A stretch of DNA of 32,000 bases. It comes from Candidatus Micrarchaeum sp. Lineage in GTDB: Archaea > Micrarchaeota > Micrarchaeia > Micrarchaeales > Micrarchaeaceae. The DNA is taken from positions 780,001-812,000 of the forward strand of contig NZ_CP060530.1 in assembly GCF_016806735.1 (NCBI RefSeq). Reading direction: 5' to 3'. Position numbers and translations under genes: made by a program. Shown in pieces: positions 4,656 through 29,503 of the stretch (position 1 is the stretch's first letter; each line of letters opens with the position of its first letter). The notes under the pieces were generated by a model. The model ran no database searches, was not told the origin of the DNA, and saw only the letters and a program-made list of their open reading frames with translations.

Positions 4656-5030
4656 TCATATCCTGCCGTATATAGTCCCGAATTCCTGCATTCTTTTTTT
4701 GATTTCCTGTGCGGATTTTTCGTAATCCTCCAGAGCTTCGGTCCCCTTCTTCGTTATGGAGTACTGCCTTCTTGTCTTTTCGGACCTCTTTTCGGTTTCG
4801 TCTGACTTTATGTAGCCGTTCGCCTCAAGCCATTCCAGGGTTGGATATATTGCTGCCGGGCCGGGCCTCCACATGCCGTTTGTCTTTTCGAATATCTGCT
4901 CCATGAGCTCGAAGCCGTGCATGGGCCTTTCAGAGAGCAGCTTCAGCACCAGGGGCTTGAGCAGCCCCTTTGGCACTATGTCTACCCTGAAAGGTCCGCA
5001 GTTGCAATAGCCTCTTGGCATTTCATTCAT
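4656..5030 (-). CDS. PadR-family transcriptional regulator
   Basis: LKPLVLKLLSERPMHGFELMEQI...GPAAIYPTLEWLEANGYIKSDE...RRQYSITKKGTEAL is a typical PadR winged helix. Confidence 0.8.
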   Translation of the reverse strand: MNEMPRGYCNCGPFRVDIVPKGLLKPLVLKLLSERPMHGFELMEQIFEKTNGMWRPGPAAIYPTLEWLEANGYIKSDETEKRSEKTRRQYSITKKGTEALEDYEKSAQEIKKRMQEFGTIYGRI

Positions 5031-5316
5031 CCTTGGCTTCGGTTTCGCTTGAGCCTTTCTGGATCTCGTCTATGCGCTTTGCTATGAATTTTGCCTGCTC
5101 TTCCAAGTCCTCCTTGTAGAGTTTGAGCTTTTCTATGAGCCTTTCCTTGTGTAGGGGGCCCATTTCATCCATGCTGTCCATGTCAGAGCTCGTTCCCATT
5201 CCGTGCATGTGCATCCCCATTCGTCCGCGCATACCTCCGCGCATGCCACCATTCATGTTTCCGTGGCCGCATCCGCAACCGCAGTCGTTTCCATTTTCGT
5301 TCATTTCGTATCTCAT
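5023..5316 (-). CDS. Small Cys/Gly/Met/His-rich protein with C-terminal coiled coil (DUF5320-like)
   Basis: 97-aa ORF overlapping the PadR start by 8 nt. The N-terminal half is DCGCGCGHGNMNGGMRGGMRGRMGMHMHGMG. The C-terminal half, LIEKLKLYKEDLEEQAKFIAKRIDEIQK, is helical. The layout resembles DUF5320 proteins, which commonly sit next to PadR genes. Confidence 0.5.
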   Translation of the reverse strand: MRYEMNENGNDCGCGCGHGNMNGGMRGGMRGRMGMHMHGMGTSSDMDSMDEMGPLHKERLIEKLKLYKEDLEEQAKFIAKRIDEIQKGSSETEAKDE

Positions 5317-5353
5317 ATTATATCACTACTGATATAGTTAGTTATATAAATAT

Positions 5354-5800
5354 TTAAATGTTTCGTTTCATGGAATCGAGCTTTTCAAACGCTTTTTTTA
5401 TCTCGTCCGAATTCGCGTATTCGTCTATCCATGGATAGAAGTCAGACTCTTCCATGGAATCATGGGAAGTGAGCAGCTGTTCAAGCTCTGACACAAATCC
5501 AGGGATTGTTTTATTTGCACTAGGATTCTTTATTGCCAGCCTTATTTCCTGAATCAGGGACCTTATCCTGGAATGCTGCAGTGATATCTCTTCGAGCAGA
5601 AGGTTTTCTGTTTCGCCGGTATGCGATTCCACAATCGGAAAAAGTATTTTTTCCTCAAATTCCATATGCCTTGATATCCCTGAAACAAAGTTTTCGAAGT
5701 ATTCTGGCGATTCCGAAAGCTTGAACTGTTCGAGCAGTTCGTACTCTTCGTGATGCTCCCCGGACATGAATTCATAGATTTTTCCCATTGTTTTGAACAC
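5354..5800 (-). CDS. Hemerythrin-like (HHE cation-binding) domain protein
   Basis: 148-aa ORF. GEHHEEYELL, HMEFEEKILFPIVE, LQHSRI and SHDSMEESDFYPWI give the His/Glu spacing typical of hemerythrin-like four-helix bundles. The track start overlaps the upstream gene by 29 nt. Alternative in-frame ATGs lie at 5788 and 5767. Confidence 0.5.
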   Translation of the reverse strand: MFKTMGKIYEFMSGEHHEEYELLEQFKLSESPEYFENFVSGISRHMEFEEKILFPIVESHTGETENLLLEEISLQHSRIRSLIQEIRLAIKNPSANKTIPGFVSELEQLLTSHDSMEESDFYPWIDEYANSDEIKKAFEKLDSMKRNI

Positions 5801-6254
5801 CGTTTTGAGCTTGTACTGGCTCTTTTTTCTGTATTACAGGCTTTATGCTCTTTCCAGAAGCCATTATGTGCCAGATGTTTGCCACATGTATAAGTATTGC
5901 CAGCACAAGAAGCGCTAGGCCCAAAGGCAGCAGCGCAGTAGTGGCGCTTCCAAAAAGCCCTATCATGGATAAGAACAACAATATTATCCCCATGTTCATT
6001 GCTGCGAGCTCAACTGCTACTGACTTGTAGTTTGCAAAAGTCGCATGGGAAAGCCCGGGTGCGAAAATATAGGAAAGCCCAAATACCATCATAGTGACAA
6101 AGCCGTAAAGCTCCAATATGAATATTGGATCGTGCTTTATCAAAATAACCCCTGTTAGATCGAGCGCCAGCAGTATCGTGCCGATTAGCAGATAGGCAAA
6201 GGCTATTGCCATGTATGACCTTGCCAGCTTTGAACTTGCGGATACGTTGTCCAT
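5772..6254 (-). CDS. Hypothetical integral membrane protein (about 4 TM helices)
   Basis: 160-aa ORF with four long hydrophobic segments and a polar C-terminal tail. No family recognised. Confidence 0.5.
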   Translation of the reverse strand: MDNVSASSKLARSYMAIAFAYLLIGTILLALDLTGVILIKHDPIFILELYGFVTMMVFGLSYIFAPGLSHATFANYKSVAVELAAMNMGIILLFLSMIGLFGSATTALLPLGLALLVLAILIHVANIWHIMASGKSIKPVIQKKEPVQAQNGVQNNGKNL

Positions 6255-6258
6255 TTGA

Positions 6259-6648
6259 CTAACCTTGCTTTGAATCCATATTTGAGGAATCAGGAATAAA
6301 CTTTATAGATATGGAATTGACGCAGTGCCTTACGTTCTTCTTTGTAAGTTGCTCGCCGGTAAATACGTGGCCCAGATGGGCGCCGCACCTGGCGCACTCT
6401 ATTTCAGTCCTTATGCCGTCAGCGTCAAGGATTCGCTTAATTGCTCCAGGAATTTCGTCGTCGAATGCCGGCCATCCGCATCCGGAGTCGAACTTGTCCT
6501 TGGAACGGTACAGTGGAGCCCCGCATCTTTTGCATACATAAGTTCCTGGCTTGAAAAAATCGTCGTATTCTCCGGTGAATGGAGCTTCCGTGCCCTTGTG
6601 CAGTATTACGCGCTCCTCCTCTTTTGTGAGTTTTGCGTATTCCGCCAT
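6259..6648 (-). CDS. msrB: Peptide-methionine (R)-S-oxide reductase MsrB
   Basis: Two CxxC zinc motifs ([20 protein letters not shown]), GCGWPAF and the catalytic RHCVNS motif. Confidence 0.9.
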
Positions 6649-6657
6649 TTTATTGCC

Positions 6658-6999
6658 TTACTTGGCCTTTCCGCTCTGCTTCTTGTACTTCTTTATGAGG
6701 TCTATTGCCTGGTCTATGGAGCGCTTCACGTCGGCCTCGGTCCTGGCACCAGTGCATATTATCTTGCCGTTCTTGAATAGAAGCAGCGCAGACTTGGGCT
6801 CGTGTATTTTGAGAATTGCCCCTGGAAACTGCTCGGGCTCATAGTCGACGTCGTAGGACAGCCTTGCAAGGCCGTAGAGATCCAGCTCTATGCTGAGGTC
6901 AGCGCTTGCGACCATGTTGACAACCCTGTACGTCGGATGAAGCACAATATGCTTCCCTAGAGCTGAATCGTGAGATTGGGACTTTGCCATCAAGAACAC
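6658..6999 (-). CDS. Single-repeat TATA-box-binding-protein (TBP) domain protein
   Basis: 113-aa ORF. VVNMVASADLSIELDLYGLARLSYDVDYEPEQFPGAILKIHEPKSALLLFKNGKIICTGARTEADVKRSIDQAIDLI is one complete TBP repeat, closest to the C-terminal repeat of archaeal TBPs (...EYEPEQFPG...EPK...LLF.SGKIVCTGAK.E.D...). There is no second repeat. Flanking sequence is msrB (9-nt spacer) and a promoter region. An alternative ATG lies at 6990. Confidence 0.75.
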   Translation of the reverse strand: MFLMAKSQSHDSALGKHIVLHPTYRVVNMVASADLSIELDLYGLARLSYDVDYEPEQFPGAILKIHEPKSALLLFKNGKIICTGARTEADVKRSIDQAIDLIKKYKKQSGKAK

Positions 7000-7023
7000 C
7001 TAGAAGATTTTTAAGCCTTAAGG

Positions 7024-7037
7024 CATAAATATATATG
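7024..7037. promoter_or_regulatory. TATA-like element in divergent intergenic region (TBP-domain gene / rpl21e)
   Basis: CATAAATATATATG lies 25-38 nt upstream of the minus-strand start at 6999 and about 60 nt upstream of the rpl21e ATG. Positional argument only. Confidence 0.3.
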
Positions 7038-15546: not shown

Positions 15547-17013
15547 TTATTTTATGAGCTTTAGCTCCTTTAGCTTCTTTTCCAGCATCGAATGTTCGGC
15601 GCCAACGGTTACCTTTGACATGAGAGCAAGATACCTTGTAAGCCCTACCTCAGTTCCTTCGGGCGTTTCGCTCGGGCATATCTTGCCTATGTGTGTGCCG
15701 TGTACGTCCCTCGCTTTCAGGTGGGGGTGCTTCTTTGCCAGCGGAGACTTGACCCTGCGCAGGTGCGCCACGGAGCTCATGTAGTTGACTCTGTCGAGAA
15801 CCTGCGATACCCCGGTTTGCCCTGCTGGCCATGAGCCGGTGCTCATGGAATAAAGTATCTTTTCTGTAAGCGTATCTGGGTTTATGTTGGTCTTTACCGT
15901 AAGCCTGCGTCCTCTGGCGGTAGTCCTTTCGACGTGGTACTTTATGTCCTTTATGAACGCCTTGAAGGCAGTGTTGAAAAGCTCCTCCAAAAGGTCCCCG
16001 GCAAGCTTCACGCGCTTGTTGGCGTAGTGGTCCTTGTCGTCAGGCTTGACCGTGCCGTTCGCCACCATTGACGTGCGCGACGCCATCCTTATCAGATACG
16101 CCGCTTTTTCCTTCCTGACTTCCGGAGACGTGCCGAGATGCGGCAGTATGTATGTATCCAGCTGTGTCTCTGCTCTCTTTTCCTGATAGGCCATAGCCTG
16201 GTTTGGCGCCGTTATCCTGCCCAGCTCTATTATGGCATCTTTCGGCTGCATCTCCATGTAGTTCTTTCCTACTTCCATGTTCAGCATCAGGTCGTTGCGT
16301 GCAAAATTGTCCTCGGTAAGAGCCAGAACCGACTTCTGGTCCATTCCAAGCGACCTTAGTATGAGCGAAAGGCTTATGCCCTTGTTCAGCGTCGGGAACA
16401 GAACCGTGTACATGCCGTAGTCGTCTCTGGTTATGCTGCAGCGGGCCCTAAAGTTGACAGTGGTAGAGAAAACCTTGACCACTATGCCCACTTTCTCCTT
16501 TGTCGTTATCATCCTGTTGGGCGCAAGGTCCTCTATGCCTACGAGAACGCGCTCCGTGCCCTTTATTATGAAATAGCCTCCTGGGTCGTCCGGGTCCTCG
16601 CCCTCCTTCACGAGCTGCTGCTCAGTCATGTTCTTTGTGTAGCATAGGTTGCTCTTTACCATCACCGGGAGCTCGCCCACATAAGCCTCGCCCATTGCGT
16701 CGGCCTTCTCTATGCCGCTTATCACAGGCACGTAAGTGAGGTACATGGGAGCCGCATATGTGAGGTTCCTGGCCAATGCTTCGTTGGGGAGAATTCTCTT
16801 GGTGGAGCTGTCCGATTCTATTATTATGGGCTGCTCAAGCCTTATGCTCCCGAGCTTTATTGCGAAATTGGATACGTCAGGCTCTATGAGGCTCTGCGCC
16901 TCCACTATCTTGTTCAAGCCTGTAGTTATGAACCTGTTGTAGCTGTCTATCTGCTGCTGTGAGATAGAAGTAGTTTTCAGATATGATTCCATTACCTCGT
17001 GTGTTGCGCTCAT
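15547..17013 (-). CDS. rpoB2: DNA-directed RNA polymerase subunit B'' (N-terminal part of split Rpo2)
   Basis: 488 aa. QQIDSYNRFI..., GYFIIKGTERVLV, DKDHYANKRVKLAGDLL and HGTHIGKICPSETPEGTEVGL are conserved N-terminal Rpb2/beta motifs. The ORF ends where B' begins, with a 15-nt spacer. Confidence 0.95.
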   Translation of the reverse strand: MSATHEVMESYLKTTSISQQQIDSYNRFITTGLNKIVEAQSLIEPDVSNFAIKLGSIRLEQPIIIESDSSTKRILPNEALARNLTYAAPMYLTYVPVISGIEKADAMGEAYVGELPVMVKSNLCYTKNMTEQQLVKEGEDPDDPGGYFIIKGTERVLVGIEDLAPNRMITTKEKVGIVVKVFSTTVNFRARCSITRDDYGMYTVLFPTLNKGISLSLILRSLGMDQKSVLALTEDNFARNDLMLNMEVGKNYMEMQPKDAIIELGRITAPNQAMAYQEKRAETQLDTYILPHLGTSPEVRKEKAAYLIRMASRTSMVANGTVKPDDKDHYANKRVKLAGDLLEELFNTAFKAFIKDIKYHVERTTARGRRLTVKTNINPDTLTEKILYSMSTGSWPAGQTGVSQVLDRVNYMSSVAHLRRVKSPLAKKHPHLKARDVHGTHIGKICPSETPEGTEVGLTRYLALMSKVTVGAEHSMLEKKLKELKLIK

Positions 17014-21395: not shown

Positions 21396-22277
21396 TTATC
21401 CCGTAGCGTTTGGATGGTCCGCTATATAGCTCTCGAACGCGTTTATGGTTGCGTTTTCTACATTCTTAGTATAGGAGATAAGATTTAGCGCACCAACATC
21501 TGGACTGAAGCCGGCGCTGGTAGCCTTTATTATATAGTTGCCATACATGGCTTCGGCCATATACACGGTCATGTTTGGTTTTGGGCCGAGATAACTGCCG
21601 AACTGTTCAGTGGCATTTGCACTCATGTTTGAAATTCCGAAGAAGTACACAGTAATATTGTCATGGGTATATTTAGATTTCGAAACAGAGGATTCAGACA
21701 TTACCAAAGACATAGATGGCCTGCAAAAACCTCCGTTGGATTCGAACAAAGCGTTATAACCTGCTGCATTTGATGGATTTATGCCCTCCACGGCAGCGTA
21801 TTCCGCAATCGGCTGGGCCCTGTTCAATTTGGACAGATTATATGCAGTGGATATCATTGTCTGATTTTGCATATATCCGAGTATGCCTTCCAGGCCAGTG
21901 CAGTTTGCGTTTGTGGAATATGGCTTGAAAACGGTCCTGAATGAGTATTTGAGTGGCGAGCTGAAGCTATAGTTACTTATGAAGGCATTGGCAGCCAAAT
22001 AGGTAACCGGCTCAAAGATTTTACCGATTCTCGGACTTGTCGGAGTTGTTGAATTATTTGCCACAGATATAGTACTGATCGTTGATGTAGACGCATTATG
22101 CGGCACATAGGAATGCAATGTGATTATTATGCCTGCTAGTATAATTACGATTATTATGCCCAGCGCTATTGTTGATTTCCTGCCCCTTTTTATGGCAGTA
22201 TTATTGTAGTTATTGTTAGCGGGCTCTTGAGCAAGTATCGCACCTTTGGCGTCCTGTTCTGCATTTAATTCAGTCAT
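21396..22277 (-). CDS. Membrane-anchored extracellular protein rich in N-glycosylation sequons (hypothetical)
   Basis: I prefer the ATG at 22277 (MTELNAEQ...), 10 nt after the upstream TAG, over the track start at 22343, which overlaps the upstream gene. It has a cytoplasmic N-terminus, one TM (STIALGIIIVIILAGIIITL), then about 230 aa with at least 10 NxS/T sequons counted by eye. Confidence 0.55.
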   Translation of the reverse strand: MTELNAEQDAKGAILAQEPANNNYNNTAIKRGRKSTIALGIIIVIILAGIIITLHSYVPHNASTSTISTISVANNSTTPTSPRIGKIFEPVTYLAANAFISNYSFSSPLKYSFRTVFKPYSTNANCTGLEGILGYMQNQTMISTAYNLSKLNRAQPIAEYAAVEGINPSNAAGYNALFESNGGFCRPSMSLVMSESSVSKSKYTHDNITVYFFGISNMSANATEQFGSYLGPKPNMTVYMAEAMYGNYIIKATSAGFSPDVGALNLISYTKNVENATINAFESYIADHPNATG

Positions 22278-22287
22278 GATATCATGC

Positions 22288-24648
22288 CTAACTATTCTTG
22301 TTGAATGTATATGTGGAATCTGGATTGAATACGTAGACTGCATAGCTGAAGCTCGTTGAGCTTCCAGTCATCAGCTCTGGGCCAATCCAGCCGCCGGTTC
22401 CGTCGTAAGGTATGTTGCCACATGCCAGTATATAAACGTCGTTGTAGTGGGTTGAAGAGAACAACGGAGTAGTCTGCTCCAGGTTCTCTGTAACGCTGCA
22501 ACCATATGTTGGGAATGAACCACCATCATACATTATGGCTGAAGTGCCAGGCTCGGTGGTTGAATTAAGTATGCCTTCCTGTCCTCCTGAAGTTGCGTAA
22601 GTAAGAATCACCAGCGAACTTGGTATTGAGCCGTGGTTTACCCAGAACACAGGTTGAACGCCGCTATTGTAATTTGATCCGTTTGTTGCCCACAGCTGAT
22701 AATTTGTGGCAGGGTTCCCACCTATTGCAATTGCACCGGATGATGATGAATCGGCCGTTGCGCTGCATGCGTTGCCATTTGTAATGTACCCTATATTTGT
22801 GGAGCAGTACTGGCATGTTCCACCTCCTTCTGAATTTATGTTCCAATCTACGCTTGACATTGATTGGTATATTGCAGCAACGCATTCGCTGAAAACACCG
22901 TTGTTATTGCTACATGACGGACTGAATGTCGTGGCGCTGCTGCTGTTAGTAGTACATGTTCCGTAGAACGGTATTGTGCTGGAGCTTGTGGTTGTAGATG
23001 TTGAAGTTGTTGTCGAAGTCGATGTTGTAGTAGAGGTCGATGTTGTTGTCGAAGTAGAAGTGGTTGTCGATGTCGATGTTGTGCTGGTGCTGGTGGATGT
23101 TGTCGACGTTGTTGTGGACGTTGAGGTTGTTGATGTCGAAGTCGTAGATGTCGATGTCGTAGTGCTCGTTGACGTCGTAGTAGATGTTGATGTTGTGCTT
23201 GTGGATGTGGACGTTGTTGATGTGGTTGTACTCGTTGATGTGGTTGAAGTTGTTGTTGATGTCGATGTTGTTGATGTAGAGGTAGTAGTGCTCTGGAATA
23301 CTGCAGTTTCATTTATCGGATTGTTAAGCGTTACCGAAGTGGATGTTGCAGTTCCGGAATAGCATCCTGTGCCCGTGCACGTCCAATCTATGAAAACGTA
23401 ATGCCCTGTAGTGTTTGGCGTTTCTGATATGGTAACGCTGCTGGATGGTGCGTACCATGAAGTAGCAGGAGAAACTGTTCCCCCTATGGAAGGCGAAGCG
23501 ATGTCATAAAGCTCATATTGTTCTGCATAAGATACGGTGACGTTCTGGCTTTTGCAGGTCGACACCGTTGCGCTGCCTGAATTGCTGTCGGAAGTGAACC
23601 CGTCTATGGTTACGCTCTTGAAAACGAATCTGGTTCCGGATGAGTTGTATATTATTGGGTCAAAGCTGTACGTGTGCGTAGTGTTGCAGCCCCAGTCGAA
23701 ATTCGTTGGCTTCTTTGTGAGCTGCGAATATGAATATGAAACGCCGTCTATGGTTGCAATGCCTGAAGGATTGCTTTGCAGCGACGTCGGTATGTTTGAT
23801 ATGTTGAAGAATATCGGGACTACTGCAACGAAATTTATTGTTTTTGTCGCATTAAGGCCTGCATAATTGGCATTTACCGTAACATTCGAAACTGTTGTAC
23901 CCCAAATGTAGTCAATCGCCTGGCCGTTGGTTCCAGTTGTTACGAACTGGCTCTGCAGCGAATAAGGTGGAACAGCATTTGTCCCGTTCTTTGTAAATGT
24001 TGCAGTCAAGTTCACTGTTGCGCCGCTCTGCGGATATCCCAGAAGGTCAACCCTTGCAATTAGTTCGTCTTTTGCGTTGTTGGCAGGGTTGGTTGAATTG
24101 ACTACCGAAAGCGAAAGCGTGTAACTTGGTGAAACGAGAGGCTCAGCGTGCGCGCTGTAGATGCCTTTGTAAGTCTCCTTAGGGACTGTAGAGCACGAAG
24201 AGGGAGAAGATGGTTTAGGGGCAAGGCCGCAATATGATGCATTAAGATATATGCTTCCGGAGAAGAACTGCCCTAGTGTAGAGGATACGCCTGGGATCTC
24301 TAGCACACATATGACAGAACCTCCGGGAAGAACGAAAGAGGGTTTGCATTGCACGGCAGTCGTGTTTTTTCCATTTACGCTGGCATAAAGTTCAGGATCG
24401 TATATGGGATATTTCCGGGAGTTGGTTATGAAGAGGCCCATGGTGGTTGCATGGGTTGTGGCATTTGTGCCGAAAATCATGTCCTGGCATACTGCGCCTG
24501 TGAGAAAGCTGCATGTTGATGGAACTATTATCTTTGGGACTGCGACGTACAGGTAAAGCAGGGATATGACCACTGCAATAATTAGTATTGCCCAGCCGTA
24601 TGTTATGAGGTATTCCAGTGCGGATTGCGCTTTTCCCAAATATATCAC
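22288..24648 (-). CDS. Large surface protein with archaeal class III (type IV prepilin-like) signal peptide, B-repeat-like segment, Thr/Ser stalk and Cys-containing C-terminal domain
   Basis: The N-terminus MIYLGKAQSALEYLITYGWAILIIAVVISLLYLYV has a short basic leader and a KA|QS cleavage context. It has Glu at +5 of the predicted mature end and a ~25-aa hydrophobic helix (QxxxEYL-type motif of PF04021-like pilins). GGTVSPATSWYAPSSSVTISETPNTTGHYVFIDWTCTG resembles InlB B-repeat-type domains. GTG start. Confidence 0.7.
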   Translation of the reverse strand: MIYLGKAQSALEYLITYGWAILIIAVVISLLYLYVAVPKIIVPSTCSFLTGAVCQDMIFGTNATTHATTMGLFITNSRKYPIYDPELYASVNGKNTTAVQCKPSFVLPGGSVICVLEIPGVSSTLGQFFSGSIYLNASYCGLAPKPSSPSSCSTVPKETYKGIYSAHAEPLVSPSYTLSLSVVNSTNPANNAKDELIARVDLLGYPQSGATVNLTATFTKNGTNAVPPYSLQSQFVTTGTNGQAIDYIWGTTVSNVTVNANYAGLNATKTINFVAVVPIFFNISNIPTSLQSNPSGIATIDGVSYSYSQLTKKPTNFDWGCNTTHTYSFDPIIYNSSGTRFVFKSVTIDGFTSDSNSGSATVSTCKSQNVTVSYAEQYELYDIASPSIGGTVSPATSWYAPSSSVTISETPNTTGHYVFIDWTCTGTGCYSGTATSTSVTLNNPINETAVFQSTTTSTSTTSTSTTTSTTSTSTTTSTTSTSTSTTSTSTTTSTSTTTSTSTTSTSTTSTSTTTSTTSTSTSTTSTSTTTSTSTTTSTSTTTSTSTTTSTSTTTSSSTIPFYGTCTTNSSSATTFSPSCSNNNGVFSECVAAIYQSMSSVDWNINSEGGGTCQYCSTNIGYITNGNACSATADSSSSGAIAIGGNPATNYQLWATNGSNYNSGVQPVFWVNHGSIPSSLVILTYATSGGQEGILNSTTEPGTSAIMYDGGSFPTYGCSVTENLEQTTPLFSSTHYNDVYILACGNIPYDGTGGWIGPELMTGSSTSFSYAVYVFNPDSTYTFNKNS
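22975..23292 (-). repeat. 106-codon Thr/Ser low-complexity tract (degenerate ACN/TCN/AGY short tandem repeats) inside the 786-aa ORF
   Basis: Translates as STTTSTSTTSTSTTTSTTSTSTTTS...TSTTTSSS without interruption. Boundaries were read from codons: Q at 23293-23295 on the N-terminal side, I at 22972-22974 on the C-terminal side. Confidence 0.9.
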
Positions 24649-27067: not shown

Positions 27068-29503
27068 TCAGTCGAATATGTTTGCCGGATTCTCCATCGA
27101 TATCAGTTTTACGTATCCTGCCGATATGTAGAGCTTGAGCTGCTCCGCACCCGCATCGGAAATCGAATATAAGCGGTCCTTGAAGTCTTCGAGCCTGTCG
27201 TCGTTCATGAACGCTATGAATGTCTTGGAATTGGCGCTTACGGGTATGTTCTTGAACTTGCTTGAAGGAGCGTATATCACTACGTTGTGCCTCTCTCCGC
27301 CAACGACCACGTTCATGTCTGCGGTCTGGCTAGTGTCGAGATCGGTGAACACGTAGGCATGGGTCACCATGTATATCCTGAGCTTCTTGAACACCGCAAG
27401 GTATTCTATGTCGTGCTTGCTCTCGTCTATCCAGCCCTTTGGCGCATACAGGTCATCAGCCGATATGACGAGCCCGTTTGCAATCAGCTGGTCTAGAAGC
27501 ACTTCGACGTTTGAAGGGGTAAGGTTGACCGGAATCCCGTTGTACCTTATGTTGCTGGCTATGGCGAGCTTGAACTCGCTTATCGACAGAGGCATATAGC
27601 GCCAGTGGTAATACGTGTTGAGCTTCTGGAAAACAAGCATCACGTCTTGTGCATTGAGGGTTATAAATGTGCGCTGCTGTTTCGGCATGTGCGGCACGTC
27701 TATGAAGAAATCGTCCCTGTTCGGCGACCTCACCATCGTTACCATGAGGAGCATCAGCACTATCGCAACTATCAGCGCTATGTCCTTCGAAGTTATCTTT
27801 ATGACCGGAGCGGGATTGCTTGCCACGTAGGAGAATTTCTGCGAGAGTATCTTTGCCGTGAAATTCAGCGTTCCGAACTGCTCGCCTATTCCCTTAGGAA
27901 GCGAATAAAGTATCGTGCCGTTTGTCAGCGTGCCGTTCAGAGGGTATTTGCCGTTAAGCGTCATTGTATAGTCGAGCCCTGTCAGCGGAGCGCCGTCGGA
28001 GCTTATGTAGAACCTGAATGAATTTGACGTGTAGTTGGAATATACCTCAGTAACGTTTACCGGAGGCACTCCGAAGAGCGCGCTGGCATAGAGGTTGTCG
28101 GAAAAGCCCTTGAGCTGGATTATATAGCTGCCCGGGACAAATGACGATTTTATTAGCTTTACAAAGGTGAAATTTCCGGTTGCGGATATGGAGGACAAAG
28201 GTATGGTTGAAACCTTGACCATGTTCTCAGTGTATATTGAAAGATGGGGCTGTATCTGTATCGGAACGCTCGAATGCGTATATATCTGCATCGTTATCGA
28301 CTGGGAGCTTCCGAGTACAATAGTAGAAGGCAGCGAAACCGTGCCGCTGCTTATGTAGCTTGATGGCTCGCTTATGTACCTGTATATTGATTTGCCGGAA
28401 TTGCCATAGCTGGAATTTGTGTATATTTCAGCGTAAAGCCATCCCGACTCAAGGGCTGCGACATTCTGAACAGTATAATTTATCTTGGGGCTTGGCATTG
28501 CTATTCCGGCCGAGCCCGACTCGGTCCTGGATGCGTTTAGCGCAATCGTTTCCAATCCGTGCGCGTAGCGCGGAAGCCAGAAGGCGCTCGAAATTGCTTT
28601 TGCCATGTCTTCCGAAGCCAATGATGGAGACGGCCAAGAATTTAGGTAATTAGAGAACGCCACTATGCTGCCATTGAAAGCATTGACGTATGATATGTCG
28701 CCATAGCTGCGCCCGCCGGAAAACGAAAATGTAGGATTGTTGAATGCGAATATGCTGTTTGATGATACCGAGGACGTTGTAAACATGTAGGAGGGTATGC
28801 GGGAATTAGGGACTATCACACCGTTCTGCAGCACGACCCTTGAGAATGCCTGCCCTATATATATTACGCTAGTCCCCCTGTCAAGAAGGTAGTGCATCAG
28901 CGTTATGTTGCTCGAGCCGTAATTGCTAAGCATTGCCTGCGGCATTAGCCCGTTCGGTATTATAAGGATGGAATTGTTTGAAATTGTTGGGAGATCTGAT
29001 TCGTTTATTACAGTTAGGTTTCCGACTTCGGAAGTGAGTCCGTAGAGCGCAAGGTCGGATTGCACAACGTCCTCGAAAGCCTGGAAATCTCCGCAGTTTA
29101 CACACCCTGACTGCGATGCGTTAAGCATGTACACTTTTGCAGGGAAGTTGGATTTGAGAAGGGACACGTTTACGTAGAGTTTTGTAATGTTGGAAGTAGA
29201 ATACGAAAGTTCCGCGTATGGAATGACAAACTGCGATTCGTTGCTGTCAAGCAGGGCCTGGTAGCTCACATACGTGCTTAGCGAAGTAGGCAGGACCACT
29301 GGCGGCGCAGGTGGAGTTATTTTTATGTGGCTTAGCTCCGAGGATAGGTATAGGCCGCTGGCTACCATCGCAATGATGAATATTGCGGCAATGATTATCA
29401 CAAGTTTTTTGAAATTTGCCAATGTTGATGCACCGTCATTTTTCCTCTTTCTTGGTAAGCGCCTTGGTAAAAAGGCGCGACAGGAAGTTCTGCTTTGGGC
29501 CAA
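27068..29503 (-). CDS. Large bitopic membrane protein: TM, ~520-aa sequon-rich ectodomain, TM, ~215-aa cytoplasmic domain (hypothetical)
   Basis: 811-aa ORF. TM1 is LVIIIAAIFIIAMVASGLYL and TM2 is IALIVAIVLMLLMVTMV. There are at least 18 NxS/T sequons between them by eye. The start is uncertain: TTG at 29503 in the track, or an alternative TTG at 29422 (LANFKKLVIII...) preceded by GGTG 8 nt upstream. Confidence 0.6.
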   Translation of the reverse strand: MAQSRTSCRAFLPRRLPRKRKNDGASTLANFKKLVIIIAAIFIIAMVASGLYLSSELSHIKITPPAPPVVLPTSLSTYVSYQALLDSNESQFVIPYAELSYSTSNITKLYVNVSLLKSNFPAKVYMLNASQSGCVNCGDFQAFEDVVQSDLALYGLTSEVGNLTVINESDLPTISNNSILIIPNGLMPQAMLSNYGSSNITLMHYLLDRGTSVIYIGQAFSRVVLQNGVIVPNSRIPSYMFTTSSVSSNSIFAFNNPTFSFSGGRSYGDISYVNAFNGSIVAFSNYLNSWPSPSLASEDMAKAISSAFWLPRYAHGLETIALNASRTESGSAGIAMPSPKINYTVQNVAALESGWLYAEIYTNSSYGNSGKSIYRYISEPSSYISSGTVSLPSTIVLGSSQSITMQIYTHSSVPIQIQPHLSIYTENMVKVSTIPLSSISATGNFTFVKLIKSSFVPGSYIIQLKGFSDNLYASALFGVPPVNVTEVYSNYTSNSFRFYISSDGAPLTGLDYTMTLNGKYPLNGTLTNGTILYSLPKGIGEQFGTLNFTAKILSQKFSYVASNPAPVIKITSKDIALIVAIVLMLLMVTMVRSPNRDDFFIDVPHMPKQQRTFITLNAQDVMLVFQKLNTYYHWRYMPLSISEFKLAIASNIRYNGIPVNLTPSNVEVLLDQLIANGLVISADDLYAPKGWIDESKHDIEYLAVFKKLRIYMVTHAYVFTDLDTSQTADMNVVVGGERHNVVIYAPSSKFKNIPVSANSKTFIAFMNDDRLEDFKDRLYSISDAGAEQLKLYISAGYVKLISMENPANIFD

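Follow-up and report, generated by a model that had tools for sequence, protein, structure and literature searches.

Does an archaeon start transcription with half a TATA-binding protein (TBP)? TBP is the textbook example of a pseudo-symmetric protein, and it is thought to descend from a one-repeat protein that worked as a homodimer, an ancestor so far hypothetical and deduced from the internal repeat (PMC3597702, PMC4910066, PMC12917281). The DNA analysed here (the window, 32,000 nucleotides in all) comes from Candidatus Micrarchaeum and encodes a TBP that has one repeat only. We consider it likely, with a probability of roughly 60%, that this protein is a general TBP acting as a non-covalent homodimer, and this is the best-supported mechanism among those weighed below.

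The gene and its single TBP repeat

The gene lies within an open reading frame at 6658..6999 on the minus strand. A first, sequence-only reading of the window began the protein at the GTG at 6999 and gave it 113 aa. Translation almost certainly begins at the ATG at 6990, which gives 110 aa, because all database orthologues are called as 110 aa with the N-terminus MAK...; the GTG is part of AGGTG, a putative Shine-Dalgarno-like motif (Table 1). Upstream, the promoter region of ~70 nt that had been proposed is replaced by a spacer of 106 nt between the start codons of the TBP gene and rpl21e. The remaining features described around the gene were recovered as stated: Pfam identified the divergent rpl21e on the other strand, the distance from the TBP stop codon to msrB was confirmed, and the Lys-rich tail KKYKKQSGKAK is seen in the sequence.

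In the middle of the divergent spacer, ~40 nt ahead of the first TBP codon, lies a nearly palindromic AT-rich element, ATAAATATATAT, which is a candidate TATA box of the TBP gene and may also belong to rpl21e. An element serving both genes would fit a symmetric TBP. Judged by position, its minus-strand form ATATATATTTAT appears to suit the role of TATA box better than TTAAAAAT (7007-7014, minus strand), which was set aside because transcription would then start inside the conserved ORF.

Pfam TBP (PF00352) matches the protein once, over aa 24-105 of the 113-aa reading and profile positions 2-85 of 85 (E 1.3e-25), as predicted for a single complete repeat. The match carries the repeat signature along its whole length, as do both repeats of the solved archaeal TBPs; the two tandem repeats per polypeptide that characterize TBP proper are not found. 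A six-frame search with a repeat HMM detected exactly one TBP domain, and no second one in any frame, in the 32-kb window; the earlier statement that no second repeat is hidden by a frameshift therefore holds. Stop codons flank the ORF on both sides, and the downstream frames contain nothing TBP-like. A frameshifted or adjacent second repeat is thus excluded by the six-frame search, which covered the window and all loci, and by inspection of the downstream frames.

The single repeat contains the stirrup motif Y50-EPEQFPG-57 and the Phe pair F55 and F72, and residues Y50-G57 and F72 are invariant in both alignments that we made (A1 and A2). From established TBP structures, Phe residues of this type kink the DNA and the stirrup Y-E-P-E-Q-F-P-G contacts TFB. 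In the 83-column repeat alignment, identity between the protein and either repeat of the TBP from M. jannaschii or P. woesei is 38-44%. The one-repeat consensus retains all invariant TBP residues and departs from both repeat consensuses in only 2 columns out of 83, where D replaces E ahead of YEPEQ and A replaces S ahead of LLLF.

The AF2 monomer model (pLDDT 87.9) has the order of elements listed in Table 1 and superposes on one lobe of solved TBPs with an rmsd of 0.8-1.0 Å over ~81 residues, so that the protein is predicted to adopt the fold of a TBP lobe. All 44 significant Foldseek matches in the PDB are bona fide TBPs, nearly all at an rmsd of 0.8-1.4 Å, and none of these 44 is a one-repeat protein; glycosylase-type folds are confined to E > 0.1. 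The start of S1 in solved TBPs corresponds in the alignment to residues 21-25 (YRVVN), which are not assigned as a strand in the monomer model. In solved TBPs, S1 is the central strand and pairs with S1' across the dyad, and the missing strand call is therefore consistent with a missing S1 partner.

Just ahead of S1, the one-repeat proteins share an N-terminal arm with the pattern basic-basic-hydrophobic-hydrophobic-Leu-x-Pro (consensus K.vvLkP in 79 proteins). The three positions before the K/H-P are hydrophobic in 77, 63 and 95% of them, and the two positions preceding these are basic in ~80%. The motif in that form is absent ahead of repeat 1 or repeat 2 in 119 two-repeat TBPs. From its conservation and position, we propose that the arm may be a dimer contact replacing the inter-repeat linker; this basic-hydrophobic segment would probably pack on the partner subunit where other TBPs have a covalent connection. 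The C-terminal tail was rejected as a hallmark of the half-size form, since basic tails occur phylum-wide in Micrarchaeota TBPs (mean net charge +1.8 in two-repeat vs. +2.6 in one-repeat proteins).

The protein is easily overlooked by name-based annotation. Its best score against the NCBIfam TBP models is 83 bits, below all ten cut-offs (181-347), because it is half length. This would explain why NCBI-derived records (P0001, P0005, P0017, P0123) name the half-size TBP 'hypothetical protein'; IMG names it TBP. Genome surveys relying on NCBI names may consequently score one-repeat archaea as lacking TBP.

Table 1. Features of the window around the one-repeat TBP gene (window coordinates; strand in parentheses).
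Feature	Position	Strand	Description	Basis
One-repeat TBP coding sequence	6658..6990	(-)	110 aa; stop codon 6658-6660	ORF list, Pfam, orthologues
Single TBP repeat	6685..6930	(-)	aa 21-102; S1-H1-S2-S3-S4-S5-H2	Pfam, alignment, AF2, Foldseek
N-terminal arm	6934..6954	(-)	K13-H-I-V-L-H-P19, just ahead of S1	One-repeat consensus
Basic C-terminal tail	6661..6684	(-)	YKKQSGKAK	Read from sequence
Putative Shine-Dalgarno-like motif	6997..7001	(-)	AGGTG, 6 nt upstream of ATG 6990	Sequence (putative)
Candidate AT-rich TATA-like element	7025..7036	(.)	ATAAATATATAT on + / ATATATATTTAT on -	Sequence (candidate)
rpl21e	7097..7381	(+)	Conserved divergent neighbour marking the canonical Micrarchaeota TBP locus	Pfam Ribosomal_L21e, E 9.6e-15
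msrB	6259..6648	(-)	9 nt downstream of TBP	Pfam SelR, E 1e-43
Variable cluster downstream of TBP	4656-6648	(-)	msrB, 160-aa membrane protein, hemerythrin, 97-aa protein, PadR	
97-aa protein	5023-5316	(-)	Gly/Met/His/Cys-rich; MNGGMRGGMRGRMGMHMHGMG...	
Sm-like protein	8672-8896			
RNA polymerase operon	10078-17013	(-)	Large subunits split	
Rpo2, in two genes	15547-17013 and 13708-15531	(-)		
Rpo1, in two genes	11161-13704 and 10078-11160	(-)		
786-aa ORF	22288-24648	(-)		
811-aa ORF	27068-29503	(-)		
315-aa ORF	21396-22343	(-)		

Distribution, genomic position and selection

We scanned one genome per GTDB species and took the best 80 of 562 relatives, which gave 80 loci from 80 different assemblies. 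A single-repeat TBP ORF (94-168 aa stop to stop, detected by HMM) is present at ~74 of these 80 loci, and a two-repeat TBP at five, one of which is cut at a contig end. The one-repeat TBP thus occurs in at least 70 related species besides Ca. Micrarchaeum. Among the best 80 of 562 relatives, no assembly has a second TBP match, and no second TBP ORF lies within ~6 kb at any of the 80 loci. The closest two-repeat protein in a database of 5.8 billion proteins does not exceed 66% identity to the window protein.

Both forms occupy the same place in the genome. By tblastn with the neighbours from the window, rpl21e is located 100-170 bp upstream of most one-repeat genes, and it is found at the same distance from all ten two-repeat TBPs for which flanks were available, four of them looked up separately; none of the flanked two-repeat TBPs is off this locus. 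DUF655 and Rpo4/F are also among the Pfam-identified neighbours in the window, and in relatives with an 89% identical protein the TBP gene adjoins rpl21e, DUF655 and Rpo4 in the same way. In other Micrarchaeota, a two-repeat TBP stands at this site, divergent from rpl21e-Rpo4-DUF655, and presumably does the same job. By position, then, the window gene is orthologous to the general TBP gene, and one- and two-repeat TBPs are alternative occupants of one ancestral locus. For the sequence-only reading, full-length orthologues at the same locus in close relatives would have pointed to a recent truncation or a pseudogene. Such orthologues do exist next to rpl21e in more distant Micrarchaeota, but the conclusion drawn from them fails: the one-repeat form is found at ~74 loci of the best 80 of 562 relatives, falls in one clade of 40 sequences and is under purifying selection.

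That clade emerges when 253 non-redundant repeat units are compared over 83 columns by neighbour joining; the tree is rooted on the M. jannaschii and P. woesei repeats and, being built without bootstrap, indicative. In it, the 40 non-redundant one-repeat sequences group together, and the Micrarchaeota two-repeat units as a whole are their sister group. For two-repeat proteins, lineage tends to determine which repeats group together, rather than position as repeat 1 or 2.

Gene order also differs between the two groups. In the one-repeat clade (window 7097-8440, L007-L074), the pair DUF655-Rpo4 has an inverted orientation with respect to rpl21e, and rpl21e-Rpo4-DUF655 is one co-oriented block in two-repeat genomes (L004, L006, L075-L086). 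Possibly the inversion and the halving of TBP characterise one and the same lineage.

Six further one-repeat genes (L078, L079, L080, L082, L084, L085; match at ~6000-6300 in most) are nested among the two-repeat clades. They are intact ORFs at the rpl21e locus with the ancestral gene order, and they come from short-read MAGs, which leaves two possibilities for them, independent collapse in nature or a merging of the repeats by the assembler.

The gene of the window itself is well documented. An identical protein is encoded on CP060530 (989,838 bp), the closed circular chromosome that PacBio and Illumina sequencing gave for the cultured Ca. Micrarchaeum harzensis A_DKE, and the collection searched contains it in 62 blocks, on contigs from JGI, ENA, NCBI and Logan assemblies. 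Orthologues of 110 aa with 89-98% identity are present in several MAGs. Six one-repeat loci, one of them on a 1.05-Mb contig, come from MAGs labelled MFD, an isolate prefix that we take to denote the long-read Microflora Danica set. An assembly artefact is rejected for the window gene because the identical protein stands on a closed PacBio/Illumina chromosome, as well as in the 62 blocks. The one-repeat TBP is under strong purifying selection, with dN/dS of 0.02-0.07 among close orthologues and, when 850 pairs of one-repeat genes are taken, a median of 0.13; the values among close orthologues rule out a pseudogene.

Origin and mode of action of a half-size TBP

How might a TBP gene lose exactly half of its length? 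In 119 Micrarchaeota two-repeat TBPs, repeats 1 and 2 share 52-93% of their amino acids (median 66%), against 56% in the M. jannaschii TBP and 43% in that of P. woesei. Two of these proteins, P0015 and P0016, reach 90-93% at the protein level. At the DNA level, the two repeats share identical tracts of 93 nt in L004 (8001-8549), 89 nt in L077, 65 nt in L081 and 177 nt in L096 (1501-2049), centred on a YEPEQFPGAILK...LLLFKNGK core. On the flanks of these tracts, the repeats show synonymous divergence, conserved amino acids being written with different codons. This mosaic looks like the product expected of intragenic gene conversion, which appears to be ongoing.

The repeats within two-repeat genes are offset by 273-279 nt, and recombination or slippage between identical tracts would therefore delete exactly one repeat in frame. 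We thus infer an in-frame collapse as the origin of the one-repeat gene: gene conversion would keep the two repeats of Micrarchaeota near-identical, recombination or slippage between identical tracts would remove one of them, and one such product would have reached fixation in a large clade to which Ca. Micrarchaeum belongs. The reverse direction, in which a two-repeat TBP was re-duplicated from a one-repeat ancestor, is also possible.

The window protein has the same architecture as the hypothetical proto-TBP, one repeat that must dimerise. It is probably secondarily derived and not a relic, since its phylum otherwise carries two-repeat TBPs at this locus and a mechanism of collapse is obvious. 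A 2016 study found that TBPs of the Methanococcales clade (M. jannaschii and its relatives) have a low inter-repeat distance among those examined (PMC4910066). Similarity between TBP repeats can mirror ongoing gene conversion, which calls for caution where a low distance is read as closeness to the ancestor (PMC4910066).

Compared with canonical archaeal TBPs (M. jannaschii 2Z8U, P. woesei 1PCZ/1AIS), the window protein is alike in repeat signature and predicted fold. The canonical proteins have two repeats per chain, whereas the window protein has one, plus the clade-specific N-terminal arm; the saddle must therefore be a non-covalent homodimer, and a perfectly symmetric one. Two chains would associate through their S1 edge strands and rebuild the ten-stranded saddle, which would present four DNA-kinking Phe residues (F55 and F72 of each chain) and two identical EPEQ stirrups. 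Such a dimer would bind and bend TATA boxes and recruit TFB, and contact between TFB and the BRE would set the polarity of the promoter. In archaea, established work attributes promoter polarity to TFB-BRE contacts, and a symmetric TBP is therefore compatible with directional initiation. In natural two-repeat relatives, identity between the repeats reaches 90-93%, which makes such proteins almost covalent homodimers and demonstrates that an interface close to self-complementary is functional.

A broader proposal, which we hold to be slightly better than an even bet, is that one clade of Micrarchaeota, including Ca. Micrarchaeum harzensis, has no two-repeat TBP and carries out all initiation with a symmetric half-size homodimer, repeat number in the phylum being labile through conversion and collapse, and possibly re-duplication. 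If a cultivable archaeon whose genome is closed had this as its sole TBP, the protein would be a natural working example of the architecture proposed for the ancestor. A symmetric TBP would allow direct experiments on directional initiation in which the role of TFB and the BRE is isolated, and one could ask what the covalent link and the asymmetry of the repeats add.

The most serious competing explanation, though an unlikely one, is that the protein is an accessory TBP-like factor beside a two-repeat TBP encoded elsewhere in the genome, acting as a TBP variant, a competitor for TATA or TFB, a partner or a decoy, a possibility that the sequence-only reading had raised too. A divergent full-length paralogue would escape a scan of the best 80 of 562 relatives, and the known single-domain TBPs, Halobacterium TbpA and the monopartite proteins of Thermococcales, do coexist with full-length TBPs. 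TbpA is one of several TBP paralogues in Halobacterium, whose genome retains full-length TBPs. It clusters with the repeats of TBP proper rather than with remote TBP-like folds, is very similar to the full-length TBPs of the same species and is non-essential (Brindefalk et al., 2013, PMC3597702). The window protein is likewise a single-domain TBP proper; unlike TbpA, it is encoded at the canonical locus of a genome of <1 Mb, and the one-repeat form recurs in ~74 of the best 80 of 562 relatives. The Thermococcales proteins (~82-136 aa) are highly diverged, form a separate cluster and exist beside a normal TBP (Brindefalk et al., 2013, PMC3597702). Going by their published description, they resemble the window protein as stand-alone chains of ~100 aa with one TBP-like domain, but have diverged from TBP, whereas the window protein is a TBP-proper repeat (Pfam E 1e-25) that keeps the signature motifs.

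Several observations weigh against an accessory role. The gene sits at the site of the only TBP observed in other Micrarchaeota (10 of 10 flanked two-repeat genes), and this positional orthology makes a regulator or decoy less likely. The matches in the best 80 of 562 relatives each came from a separate assembly, even though the list reaches down to two-repeat TBPs with 51% identity. The repeat is as conserved as canonical repeats and shows no decoy-like loss of DNA-contact residues. Moreover, reduced archaeal genomes of less than 1 Mb rarely retain paralogues.

It is improbable that the protein is one half of a split TBP, forming a heterodimer with a divergent single-repeat protein encoded elsewhere. 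DPANN archaea often have split genes, and a divergent second half lacking both search motifs would escape the scan. However, no second TBP-domain ORF lies within ~6 kb at any of ~90 loci, and no assembly among the best 80 of 562 relatives has two matches. The protein also resembles both repeats about equally and has a TBP-like N-terminus as well as a C-terminal tail, which fits the product of a collapse and not a half left by fission.

We give marginally less credit still to a monomeric TBP-fold protein with another nucleic-acid-binding role, initiation being left to a different factor. Single TBP-like folds do function outside TBP, for example in the N-domain of RNase HIII and in DNA glycosylases, and it is the RNase HIII domain that a 2026 paper continues to use in place of the monopartite TBP prototype. 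Those folds lack the TBP signature and are fused to a catalytic domain, whereas the window protein is a stand-alone chain of 110 aa that keeps the full signature of TBP proper, with the EPEQFPG stirrup and both intercalating Phe residues conserved as in canonical TBPs. Its significant structural matches are TBPs throughout, glycosylase-type folds staying above E 0.1. Archaeal RNA polymerase genes lie in the same window, and we know of no alternative TBP for this polymerase.

Finally, the merging of two near-identical tandem repeats, which short-read assemblers can produce, or a decaying pseudogene, is a negligible prospect overall and already refuted for the window gene by its closed PacBio and Illumina chromosome, the identical copies in 62 blocks, the one-repeat genes in the presumably long-read MFD-labelled MAGs, the clade's own sequence features and dN/dS of 0.02-0.13; it remains a real worry for the six sporadic genes.

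Homodimeric action as the general TBP is thus the reading that we prefer, and we infer that the genome encodes no other TBP. In DPANN genome surveys, TBP is simply listed as present. We found no half-size TBP described for Micrarchaeota, ARMAN or DPANN in the full-text literature that we searched, which has most subscription journals outside its coverage. What sets this case apart from the single-domain TBPs reported before is a repeat of TBP proper at the canonical locus, conserved in a large clade, in apparent replacement of the canonical gene.

Neighbouring genes

The position of the TBP gene next to redox genes had suggested stress-linked expression to the sequence-only reading. Comparison with relatives does not support this idea: msrB is absent from this position in the 89% identical loci L001-L003, and the downstream cluster varies between strains. 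We therefore rejected a stress-operon link (msrB, hemerythrin, PadR) as a conserved feature. In the window, msrB is probably co-transcribed with the one-repeat TBP gene, without being a conserved partner of it.

Three loci that encode an identical TBP (L088, L091, L089) lack hemerythrin, and their msrB is shortened or altered. The 160-aa membrane protein of the cluster has no Pfam match, and at E <= 1e-5 the same is true of the 786-, 811- and 315-aa ORFs further along the window. The RNA polymerase operon, on the same strand as the TBP gene, has both of its large subunits, Rpo2 and Rpo1, divided into two genes each (Table 1).
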